Positions 8,228-12,543 of a stretch of 12,662 nucleotides of DNA are shown here, piece after piece (positions within the stretch are counted from its first letter, which is position 1; each line of letters opens with the position of its first letter). Source of the DNA: Promethearchaeota archaeon Loki_b32 (GTDB taxonomy: Archaea > Asgardarchaeota > Lokiarchaeia > Sigyniarchaeales > SOKP01); assembly GCA_005223125.1 (NCBI GenBank), contig NJBH01000060.1:1-12662 (forward strand). The letters run 5' to 3'. A program made the position numbers and the translations under genes. The notes beneath the pieces are model-generated. The model worked only from the letters and a program-made list of their open reading frames with translations, was not told the origin of the DNA and ran no database searches.

Positions 8228-8244
8228 AACATTTTTATTAAATT

Positions 8245-8923: not shown

Positions 8924-9925
8924 TTGATGATTGAAAAGATACTTCAAAGGATTGACGTTTTATTAAAGACCGCTAATTATGAAACATTGGCATTGGGTAA
9001 TTTTGCGGCGAAGAAAAGTAAATTCTGTTTTGATCTCTTAGTCAAGAAAGATGCTTTAGTATTTAGTGTAAAAATATTTCCTAATATTGATAACATAAAC
9101 CCAAGCATCCTCAGTGATATTAAATCTTTATCTACAATTCTCAAATCAAAACCTCTATTAATTGGAATTAGAAATCGATATCAAAAATTAGAAGATAATA
9201 CAATTTATATAAGAGAAGATTTACCATTTATCACACTTAATACATTTGAGAATATCCTTGAAAATAAATATCCCCATATTTTAGCAAGAAGGGGTGGTGG
9301 TGTAGTATTTTTAGATGGTACTTTAATGAAAACATTAAGAGAAGATCTTATCATAACAAGAAAAGAACTTTCTGAAAAATTAGGGATAACGAAGAGAACC
9401 CTATGTGCTTATGAAAATGAATCTATGCGACCTTCAGAGAAAATTGCTCAAAAAATATTAGAGATATTAGAAAATAAGGATCTTTTTAAAAAAATCAACA
9501 TATTTGGATGGCCTATTAAGATTGATATCGAAAACGTTGTATGTATCGAAGAAAAGGAATTAAGTGAATTTGAGGCTCATATTCAAGAAATTGTGAAAGA
9601 TATTGGCCTTTCTTCTTATTGGTATAAAAAAGGGTCAATCCCGTTCAAATTATCTTTATATTCTACTTCTGATAAAATAGAATCAGAGGGTTTTTATCCT
9701 CTCTTTTCTGGTATATCGGAAGAACAAGGGAAAATTAACGAAATGAGTTTTAAATGTCTAAAAATGTTTACAGAGGTATTCAACAAAACCTCATTATTCA
9801 TAATAGATAATGATATTAAAATTCCTGAAATATTTAAAAAAGATAAAATTCCTATTGTGAAAATTAAAAATTTAGAAAAAGTAGATGATGAAGAGGAGTT
9901 CATTGAACTCATCCAAGAATCATGA
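8924..9925 (+). CDS. Conserved archaeal HTH-type transcriptional regulator (COG1395-like)
   Basis: CFDLLVKK, PLLIG..LEDNTIYIR..LP, RRGGGVVFLDG and a central HTH (TRKELSEKLGITKRTLCAYENESMRPS). Start is TTG 8924 or ATG 8927. Confidence 0.85.
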   Translation: MMIEKILQRIDVLLKTANYETLALGNFAAKKSKFCFDLLVKKDALVFSVKIFPNIDNINPSILSDIKSLSTILKSKPLLIGIRNRYQKLEDNTIYIREDLPFITLNTFENILENKYPHILARRGGGVVFLDGTLMKTLREDLIITRKELSEKLGITKRTLCAYENESMRPSEKIAQKILEILENKDLFKKINIFGWPIKIDIENVVCIEEKELSEFEAHIQEIVKDIGLSSYWYKKGSIPFKLSLYSTSDKIESEGFYPLFSGISEEQGKINEMSFKCLKMFTEVFNKTSLFIIDNDIKIPEIFKKDKIPIVKIKNLEKVDDEEEFIELIQES

Positions 9926-10631
9926 AGATAAAATAGAATTAATTTGTGGGATTGACGAGGCTGGTAGAATTTAATTCACTTCGAATTTTATGTTAAAAGG
10001 CTCTGTCTTAGGCCCTATGGTTATCTGTGGAATTTGTTTTATTGAATCAAATTTAAGTTTTCTTCCTGAAATTGGAGTTAAAGATTCAAAAAAGACATCT
10101 CCGCATAAGAGGCATCAATTAGCTGAAATTTTGAAAAAAAAGTGCCATTCTCTTAAGATAATTGAAATTAGTGCTCAAGAAATTGATGAAAGGGAATTAA
10201 AAAAAATTACTATGAATCGACTTGAGGAGTTAAAAATGGCTGAAATAATTAACGATTTAAGGCCTGATATTATATACATTGATGCTGCTGATGTTAACGA
10301 AGAAAGATTTGGAATCTCAATTATGAATTTATTAGATTACAAGCCTAAAGAAATCATTTCTAAACATAAAGCTGATGATACTTTTCCTATAGTTTCAGCA
10401 AGTTCAATAGTGGCTAAAGACCGAAGAGATACTTTAATCGAAAAAATGTATAAAAATTACGGTTTTTTTGGTTCAGGTTATCCATCTGATATTAGAACGA
10501 TTAAATTTCTAAGAAATTATGCTAAAAAATATAAAAAAGTTCCTAAAATTGCACGGAAATCATGGAGTACGACAAAAAAAATAATAAATGAAGAAGTGTC
10601 TACAAAGAAAATAACTGATTTTCTTAATTAA
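9903..10631 (+). CDS. rnhB: Ribonuclease HII, split gene: predicted join(9903..9967,9998..10631), 232 aa
   Basis: Exon 1 (TTG 9903, with GAGGAG at 9893-9898; ATGs at 9885/9888 are alternatives) encodes ...ELICGIDEAGR. Exon 2 encodes GSVLGPMV, GVKDSKK, IYIDAAD, HKADD..PIVSASSIVAK, GSGYPSD, RKSWST and a PIP-box-like tail KKITDFL. The ORF-track call at 9990 lacks the first catalytic Asp/Glu. Confidence 0.93.
9968..9997 (+). other. Candidate 30-nt bulge-helix-bulge (archaeal endonuclease-type) intron in rnhB mRNA
   Basis: AATTTAATTCACTTCGAATTTTATGTTAAA contains an in-frame TAA (9972-9974). The 3-nt bulges AGA (9966-68) and AAA (9996-98) flank a 4-bp helix, UGGU 9962-65 with GUUA 9992-95. Removing the insert restores GGT AGA GGC (GRG). 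Confidence 0.8.
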
Positions 10632-11322
10632 TTTCTTTTTTGGCGATGAGAATTATATGATTTGCGGCATATTTATGAATATTTATGCTTTCTACAATAT
10701 TTAATCCATTTTTTTCAAGAATTCTCTTTTCTTGGGCATAAATTTGTTCAGATTTTTTTATGCTATCAATCGATTGAGATTTTATAGCAATAATTAATAT
10801 ACCATCATCTTTTAAGTAATAATTGCAATTTTCTAACGCAATTTCAGCTTGTCGTGGTTGAGCTACATCTTGATAAATTAGATCTACATTAGTAAAAATA
10901 TATTTAGCATAAGTTTCCGGAAAGCGAGCATCAGCTAAAATTGGAATAATATTTAGTCTCTTTGAGGTATTTTGAATTAACTGTCGCATACTTCTTTCTG
11001 CAAATTCTACACTATATATTATTCCTGAATGTATGATATCTGAAAGGTGAGAAATAGTTGTACCTGAAGATGCTCCTAAATACAAGCATTTTAAATCCTC
11101 ATAAAATAAATTCGTTAAAGGATTTTCTAAAATTAATGCTGCCAATTTACTTCTATAGGGATCCCATTCTCTATATTCAATTCCTTTATAGTTGATTAAT
11201 TTCTCTCCATACACTCGTTTCCCTTCCAATAAATTCGTTGTATAAAGCCTTAATCTTTCTTGGGGACCGGAAATAAACACATTGGAGAATTTGGGATGAT
11301 TTCTGATCTCTATTTTCGACAT
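10624..11322 (-). CDS. flpA: Fibrillarin-like rRNA/tRNA 2'-O-methyltransferase
   Basis: VYGEK, EYREWDPYRSKLAA, LYLGASSGTTISHLSDI, YSVEFA, NIIPILADARFP, DLIYQDVAQPRQ and IKSQSIDS motifs. Confidence 0.97.
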   Translation of the reverse strand: MSKIEIRNHPKFSNVFISGPQERLRLYTTNLLEGKRVYGEKLINYKGIEYREWDPYRSKLAALILENPLTNLFYEDLKCLYLGASSGTTISHLSDIIHSGIIYSVEFAERSMRQLIQNTSKRLNIIPILADARFPETYAKYIFTNVDLIYQDVAQPRQAEIALENCNYYLKDDGILIIAIKSQSIDSIKKSEQIYAQEKRILEKNGLNIVESINIHKYAANHIILIAKKEIN

Positions 11323-11337
11323 TTTTTCAGTCCTCTC

Positions 11338-12543
11338 TTATTTTCTTTTTTTTGATTTTTTTTTCTGACTCTTTAAGGGCTGTGCTTTTTTAGGAGGATT
11401 TGGATACTTTTTTTTAATTTCTTTTATTTTTTCATCAATTTCTTTTGACAATACGTCTCCTATGAATTCACCATTAAAATGATCAACTTTTGCGGCAAGT
11501 CCAACCTTACCTGCAACTACTCTAGCAATTTTTCCACGAGTCCACGGGGGGGATGATCGAATTAGATTCCATTGAAATATTAACCCGTGTTTTGGTCTTT
11601 TTTCACCTGTTTTAAGAAACCGATATAATGCTTTCTCAGCTCCTAATAACTGAATTCTTGAAGAAGGCATGTAAGCTAATTTTTGTAATCCTCCTGCTTT
11701 AGCTATTAATTTAGCTCCGATCAAGGAACCGATGAGAGTATTCATGTTTGGAGCAGTACTCTCCATTAATTCTTCTAAATATTTCTCTAATTGCTGACGG
11801 TAAGTATCTAAAGAAATAATTTGTTCAGCATAATTTTGTAGAATGTTAATATCAATATTTGCTCCCATTGATCCTAGAGCAAATTTCTCCAATTTTTTTA
11901 TTTTACTTTCTTTTAAATCAAAGATTTTTTCTATTTTTTCAAACGTGAAATTTTCTCTTGAACCTAAATTTGAAATCAAATTTGCTAAAGTAATATTATC
12001 TTCAATAATCTTATCAGTCAATTCAGGGAAATGTAAGCCATACCATTCTCTAAGATGACTAGAAAATAAACTAAGAGATTTTTTTAATACATCTAAAACG
12101 GTAATAATTTGAGTAATAACATTATCGGAATGTCCGCTTGCTTGACTAATCATTCTTCTTGTTAAGTCCTCACTTACTCTTTTGTATTGTGTAAGAATTT
12201 CTTCATTCGTTTTATTTATTCCAATTTCTTTTAGATGTTCTTCTAAACTTAAACGAAAAGCTTTAAGTTCTATTGATTTACTTTCAAGAAAGGTTTTAAT
12301 TTCAAGTTTTTTTGAAGCTAATGACTCTAATTTTGCATTATCAAAAATAAATTGATTAAAACCTGAATTTTTTAATTCTAGCAAAAAATTCTCAAATACT
12401 TTTTGAATAATATTATTTTCTAATGCGTTATAAAATTCAACAATTTTCTCAGAATCATTATCAAAATCAATGAAATTTAAGATGTTTCCAGTCTCATCAA
12501 ATGCAAAAATTCCAATTAATGTATCTGTTATGTAAGACTTCAT
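11338..12543 (-). CDS. nop5: Box C/D RNP protein Nop5 (Nop56/58 homolog)
   Basis: LREWYGLHFPEL, APNM..LIG..IGAKLIAKAGGL..LA.MPSSRIQLLGAEKALYR, PKHGLIFQ, RGKIAR and a Lys-rich tail. Lies directly upstream of flpA with a 15-nt spacer containing GAGAGGA. Confidence 0.97.
   Translation of the reverse strand: MKSYITDTLIGIFAFDETGNILNFIDFDNDSEKIVEFYNALENNIIQKVFENFLLELKNSGFNQFIFDNAKLESLASKKLEIKTFLESKSIELKAFRLSLEEHLKEIGINKTNEEILTQYKRVSEDLTRRMISQASGHSDNVITQIITVLDVLKKSLSLFSSHLREWYGLHFPELTDKIIEDNITLANLISNLGSRENFTFEKIEKIFDLKESKIKKLEKFALGSMGANIDINILQNYAEQIISLDTYRQQLEKYLEELMESTAPNMNTLIGSLIGAKLIAKAGGLQKLAYMPSSRIQLLGAEKALYRFLKTGEKRPKHGLIFQWNLIRSSPPWTRGKIARVVAGKVGLAAKVDHFNGEFIGDVLSKEIDEKIKEIKKKYPNPPKKAQPLKSQKKKSKKRK

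Follow-up and report, generated by a model that had tools for sequence, protein, structure and literature searches.

Bulge-helix-bulge (BHB) introns have rarely been documented in archaeal messenger RNA. In 2020, the cbf5 intron and an intron in a Haloferax 5' UTR were given as the only archaeal mRNA cases (PMC7714728), and a 2009 paper mentions untested intron predictions in other genes (PMC2738675). The cbf5 intron of Desulfurococcales and Sulfolobales (Yokobori 2009, PMC2738675, citing Watanabe 2002) resembles the rnhB intron described here: short, of BHB type and inside a coding sequence, it is cut between bulge bases two and three, splits a codon of the active-site motif, has been lost exactly in particular lineages and occurs with a two-subunit EndA. 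It differs in gene and phylum and splits the codon of a catalytic Asp, whereas the rnhB intron splits the Arg codon of the GRG motif; the rnhB intron has also changed state many more times (at least 14), is one of several inserts in its genome and is known here from sequence comparison and one RNA contig. The 5' UTR intron of HVO_1309 in Haloferax volcanii (PMC7714728) is likewise a BHB in an mRNA and is processed by EndA, but it is 46 nt long, lies outside the coding sequence and was demonstrated by circRNA-seq and in vitro. Non-canonical Asgard tRNA introns, the subject of an October 2026 preprint, come from the same organism group, with BHB boundaries and repeated gains; unlike the present case, the preprint concerns tRNA genes only ('mRNA' and 'cbf5' are absent from it), and none of the inserts it newly describes has so far been demonstrated to undergo splicing in an Asgard cell (bioRxiv 10.64898/2026.10.13.758758). 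The first-pass annotation knew of no intron reported in rnhB, and none was found in the literature searched, to which subscription journals contributed little; within that literature, cbf5 alone among archaeal coding sequences has an intron that is confirmed. The mechanism (BHB, EndA and RtcB) is already known.

The window analysed here is a stretch of 12,662 nt, contig C46 in the genome of Promethearchaeota archaeon Loki_b32 (4.13 Mb; completeness 95.5%). A probable Asgard origin had been read from the sequence, and the named close relatives are indeed mostly Promethearchaeota, with near-identical proteins labelled Lokiarchaeota. On recheck, the 30-nt insert at 9968-9997, its in-frame TAA (9972-9974), the coordinates and the base pairs named for it all matched the sequence. 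The DNA runs through the codons of IDEAG, then AG, the 30 nt (9968-9997), A and the codons of GSVLGPMV, which places the insert inside the Arg codon of DEAG-R-G (spliced codon AG/A). Excising 9968-9997 yielded an open frame of 232 codons from TTG 9903 in which, as had been claimed, the active-site motif is intact (DEAGRGSVLGP); every subsequent RNase HII motif is present too. Only after this removal did DEAGRG, the later acidic residues and the C-terminal domain of an archaeal RNase HII lie in one frame. Exon 2 alone matched TIGR00729 over positions 9-205 of 207 (E 2.4e-55), and alignment to a solved archaeal RNase HII placed the first Asp-Glu of the active site in exon 1. The earlier description of a split catalytic motif needs a correction: next to the catalytic Asp-Glu, the insert interrupts the Arg codon of the substrate-sensing GRG motif and not that of a catalytic acid. 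The GRG motif of RNase HII senses the ribonucleotide (PMC13492167). The interrupted rnhB is the sole RNase HII match in the genome, which gave no RVT_3-type match when searched with that model for RNase HI. The features of the locus are as follows (a slash marks a cut).

8924..9925, + strand: upstream PRK04140-like HTH regulator gene, its end overlapping exon 1 in another frame; the RNA contig covers both genes.
9893..9898, + strand: GAGGAG, putative ribosome-binding site for TTG 9903, inside the upstream gene end (sequence).
9903..9967, + strand: rnhB exon 1, encoding ...ICGIDEAG plus two Arg-codon bases, with the first two catalytic acids; start uncertain (TTG 9903, ATG 9888/9885).
9954..9961, + strand: exon-exon outer stem, 5' strand, pairing with 9999-10007; mostly invariant coding positions.
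9962..9965, + strand: central 4-bp helix, 5' strand (UGGU); covariation with 9992-9995.
9966..9968, + strand: 5' bulge AG/A, cut between 9967 and 9968 (RNA contig, relatives).
9968..9997, + strand: 30-nt BHB intron, missing in RNA contig X1, kept in X3 and X5, present in 81/124 family loci.
9969..9991, + strand: intron hairpin, up to 9 bp, with in-frame TAA 9972-9974; two-sided changes in 8/9 pairs.
9977..9983, + strand: conserved C-(ANNUC)-G pentaloop; closing C-G in 70/73, U9981 in 71/73, C9982 in 64/73.
9990..9992, + strand: intronic ATG, annotated start of a truncated 213-aa RNase HII (public annotation).
9992..9995, + strand: central helix, 3' strand (GUUA); covariation.
9996..9998, + strand: 3' bulge AA/A, cut between 9997 and 9998 (RNA contig, relatives).
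9998..10631, + strand: rnhB exon 2, intact through the stop (TIGR00729, E 2.4e-55).

On unspliced rnhB RNA, reading halts at 9972. Standard gene callers had been expected to miss the gene; instead it is called, as a 213-aa truncation from ATG 9990 inside the intron, and 14 of the 15 listed members of its 90% protein cluster begin at the intronic ATG, with the joined N-terminus in none. The N-terminal peptide proposed earlier is probably not the N-terminus. The in-frame candidates are TTG 9903 (behind GAGGAG), ATG 9888 and ATG 9885, all within the final codons of the upstream regulator gene. Where relatives have a stop in the start-region stretch, a canonical start lies five codons ahead of the Asp; a start stands at this place in several relatives and TTA in Loki_b32, and the real rnhB start may be non-standard. 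An exon 1 lacking a start codon, or needing a second intron, was ruled out: no complete locus is without an in-frame start, and a second gap is absent from the RNA contig. A bacterial promoter scan, a method unsuited to archaea, gave no signal above chance. On the opposite strand, the fibrillarin and Nop5/56 genes (10624-12543, -) converge on rnhB, the ends of fibrillarin and rnhB overlapping by 8 nt. The Loki_b32 subclade has GRGS (9999-10004) versus GRGP in most RNase HII, and the Ser codon supplies an extra A-U pair in the exon-exon stem of 33 of 73 carriers.

All pairs named in the hand-folded BHB exist, but the predicted best fold of Loki_b32 takes another register (BHB -3.4 versus -12.0 kcal/mol; ViennaRNA), leaving the BHB 8.6 kcal/mol worse. 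In the relatives, the median gap was 5.2 kcal/mol, and the BHB came within 2 kcal/mol of the best fold in only 20 of 77. The wider stretch around the site folded no better than shuffles (z -1.35). Relaxed BHB look-alikes numbered 163,052 in the genome on both strands, about one per 50 nt, and because they are so frequent the hand fold alone is no evidence, while comparison with relatives is.

That comparison covered 72 distinct 30-nt versions, in which 89% of cells were paired in the BHB register versus 25-41% when the partners were slid by 1-3 columns. Two-sided changes were found in 66 cells, a number reached by 0 of 500 shuffles, which ignore kinship. The annotation had cautioned that three of the four central pairs are G-U wobbles. 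The central helix forms 4/4 pairs in Loki_b32 (3 G-U), 93% of its cells are paired across 72 relatives with compensatory changes, and U9965-G9992 occurs as UG, CG, GC and UA and is paired in 72/73, which answers the caveat. Because the second central pair is unpaired in 11/73, relaxed BHB forms appear to be tolerated. Changes on both sides occurred in 8 of 9 pairs of the intron stem; the outer exon-exon stem is 88% paired, its columns being mostly invariant coding positions. The Glu codon was GAG in 80/81 carriers versus 26/42 intronless genes, and the Gly codon in the helix was GGA in 0 carriers versus 17/42 intronless genes; neither trait was ever reversed on independent tree pairs (median p 0.03 for GAG and 0.06 for non-GGA). 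The covariation favours the BHB as the adopted fold.

EndA cuts between the second and third bulge base (PMC2738675). The junctions proposed by this rule, 9967/9968 and 9997/9998, are set by the relatives, although Loki_b32 alone is ambiguous by one base (removal of 9969-9998 gives the same product). Cuts by the BHB rule restored Arg in 80 of 81 carriers and Lys in one, whereas a cut one base earlier gave Lys, Thr or Ile in 80/81; in three relatives with an AGU bulge, Arg results only from a cut after the second base, and a cut one base later gives Ser. As read from these alignments, the cut position is fixed behind bulge base two, where EndA's rule would put it. The insert does not fit a group I or group II self-splicing intron, being 30 nt and a single hairpin versus a ribozyme core of hundreds of bases, and the endonuclease gene of a mobile BHB intron was found neither within the inserts (28-31 nt) nor among the window neighbours (an HTH regulator and fibrillarin).

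The rnhB gene was read from 124 genomes of the family and from 6 genomes of other families in the same order, one family locus with an assembly gap at the insert site (G022, L021) being left out of both the carrier and the intronless counts. An insert of 28-31 nt occupied exactly the same site in 81 of the 124 family loci, distributed over 8 of 13 genera and 51 of the 52 members of the Loki_b32 genus, and DEAG(R/K)G was uninterrupted in 42 family members and in all 6 outside genomes. Every one of the 81 inserts broke the frame, 77 as 30 nt with a stop and 4 as a frameshift (28, 29 or 31 nt). In other Asgard families of a phylum-wide sample, about 100 listed matches look uninterrupted, with 142 weaker matches outside this listing; two Asgard matches from beyond the family that contain an internal stop (G177, G248) were set aside, their DEAGRG being intact. 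These alignments of related loci bear out the anticipated presence and absence at one site together with BHB covariation. The state of the insert changed at least 14 times on the protein tree, which cannot separate gain from loss. Because the inserts align gap-free and have loop bases in common, one gain with many exact losses is favoured. Within the Loki_b32 genus, exact loss occurred once (G095), and Loki_b32 itself sits in a starred clade of 20 on the protein tree, all carriers. That the intron can be dispensed with is evident from the intronless relatives; most likely it is an old, tolerated insertion for which exact removal is the sole safe way of loss. DEAGKG replaces DEAGRG in one carrier with a long branch (L132, G141) and in two intronless loci (L075, L077; G072, G071).

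The genome encodes two EndA genes (alpha and beta), RtcB and archease. EndA alpha aligned best with entries 3p1z and 3ajv, which we take to be the Aeropyrum EndA alpha subunit, with the N-terminal loop, its Lys included, and the catalytic residues Tyr, His and Lys all aligned; the second subunit is without the catalytic His. Asgard EndA has been described as a two-subunit type whose L1 loop is linked to relaxed substrates (PMC5829648). The rtcB and archease genes are adjacent and convergent (C48:37255-39070), with cbf5 14 kb away (C48:52807); over its matched part, cbf5 of Loki_b32 has no internal stop.

Scanning the genome for other BHB-interrupted genes revealed at least six further genes with similar inserts, including uL11. 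Inserts with a 4/4 helix whose removal restores conserved motifs were found in EF-2 (30 nt; C3:+75804), gyrB (53 nt; C56, minus, 37059), psmA (29 nt; C4:+22685), cdhD (33 nt; C45:+47178) and E2 (31 nt; C30:+11080), that of EF-2 lying in one of two EF-2 genes, with an uninterrupted second copy on C22. A stricter hairpin scan added a frameshifting 28-nt insert in uL11 (C57:+12438), at which the Pfam match breaks exactly (positions 1-26 and 27-58), and, within a CMGCG motif, a candidate of 31 nt. Candidate inserts of 30-34 nt that would join two coding frames came from de novo scanning, at C32:+11030, C33:+1018, C38:+22212, C40 (minus, 44881) and C27:+21006; ranked by folding energy, the de novo scan was mostly noise (rnhB 75th of 2,121), and only the stricter hairpin scan was useful. 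Most mRNA inserts have a five-base NNNUC loop (ACUUC, CCUUC, UUAUC, AAUUC, GAUUC, GUCUC, AUAUC). A UC ending occurred in 6 of 12 split-gene candidates of such loop size compared with 22 of 569 elsewhere; of these six, four had served to form the idea and only two are independent. Six tRNA introns, roughly recovered from three tRNAs by a poor recovery, have the same 28-30-nt hairpin build without the NNNUC loop. ARAGORN returned only 15 tRNAs in this 95% complete genome, tRNA-Val and tRNA-Gln apparently carrying three and two introns. A wider reading, towards which we lean a little less than away from it, is that mRNA splicing by the tRNA machinery may be routine in the Loki-type family, that rnhB, uL11, EF-2, gyrB, psmA, cdhD and E2 would depend on splicing, and that the introns of about 30 nt would form one class with NNNUC kept by selection, whether through a factor that reads the loop or through the introns' spread as a single family.

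The spliced junction was searched for in RNA, and a contig from a hydrothermal-vent metatranscriptome (X1) was found to lack exactly the 30 bases. It comprises 405 nt over 9680-10114, omits 30 letters at 9968, has 11 other differences and is about 97% identical; this RNA evidence is one assembled contig from one study and gives no strand, level or splicing ratio. A second RNA run (X2) did not cover the site. A skip by reverse transcription is an unlikely source of the gap because the repeat is one base and the hairpin weak. An assembly error was excluded by runs X3 and X5, which cross the site ungapped at about 98.6% identity. These runs belong to another study, and their kind is off record; with about 2 billion letters and every bin covered, they were taken as DNA. 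The X1 RNA and the X3/X5 DNA come from different samples, and X5 and X1 have the 10037 allele and upstream alleles in common. Just before the HTH-CBS gene, at 8236-8243, X3 and X5 differ from the window by an inserted G and three substitutions.

Because Asgard origin, correct assembly, same-site presence and absence with covariation, splicing machinery and RNA junction agree, the reading of the first-pass annotation is supported: the insert is indeed an intron, whose splicing is very probably the work of EndA and RtcB. The rnhB gene would be transcribed together with its 30-nt intron, and the exon ends and intron would fold into the BHB, a non-optimal fold presumably bound by protein. The two-subunit EndA would cut each bulge past its second base, and RtcB together with archease would join the exons, rebuilding the Arg codon (AG/A) and DEAGRG. 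Full-length RNase HII, and with it an active enzyme, would be made only from spliced mRNA.

The chief competitor, itself improbable, is that the X1 contig is no splicing product but comes from a closely related strain whose DNA has lost the insert, in which case the insert could still be an intron. RNA libraries can contain DNA, the contig is a single one, and exact loss is common in the family, with one instance in the genus (G095). Such a source is unlikely because the contig is about 97% identical overall, versus 86% for the nearest other species and 74% for the nearest intronless gene across the initial 116 nt of exon 2, and because Loki_b32 belongs to a clade of 20 carriers. The near-universal presence of the insert in the genus, the same-species DNA of X3 and X5, which holds it and has alleles in common with the contig, and the cluster members that start at the intronic ATG, none of them joined, argue against it as well, and the joined junction had no match in the JGI metagenome contigs, which likewise leaves the spliced form with one sighting. 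By a hair less probable is removal along a path that differs from plain EndA/RtcB recognition, such as one in which a helper protein attaches to the conserved NNNUC loop and refolds the weak helix. This would account for a BHB that is not the predicted best fold, for a loop U and C conserved though unpaired, and for the same loop ending in unrelated mRNA inserts of Loki_b32. However, geometry and cut sites fit EndA's rule exactly, two-subunit EndAs bearing the loop accept relaxed substrates, E2 and one further good candidate have other loops, and the motif is absent from the six roughly recovered tRNA introns.

That no splicing occurs at all, with rnhB a pseudogene or with translation from the intronic ATG giving the real product of 213 aa, is very improbable. 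Public annotation does call this protein, and many relatives have an ATG at the same place, but the product would be without the first Asp-Glu and part of GRG, the ATG is missing in several carriers and from the RNA contig, codon variation in exon 1 is almost confined to third positions, and a second RNase HII match is absent. Ribosomal recoding, by stop read-through or hopping over the 30 nt, has the faintest chance of all and is largely refuted: the length of most inserts, 30 nt, is divisible by three, yet inserts of 28, 29 and 31 nt exist, the stops vary (TAA, TAG, TGA; sometimes two), read-through would put ten extra residues inside GRG, take-off and landing codons mismatch, and the bases are missing from the RNA contig.

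Splicing of the rnhB mRNA by EndA and RtcB, the preferred reading, provides a small testable substrate in this intron. Should the wider reading of routine mRNA splicing in the family hold, the X1 contig would rank with the earliest direct evidence of spliced mRNA from an Asgard archaeon. Splicing also means that public Asgard proteomes systematically include truncated proteins, here an RNase HII minus half its active site, and these distort gene-content and phylogenetic work. The spliced rnhB RNA means that protein genes in the archaeal relatives of eukaryotes can depend on splicing.
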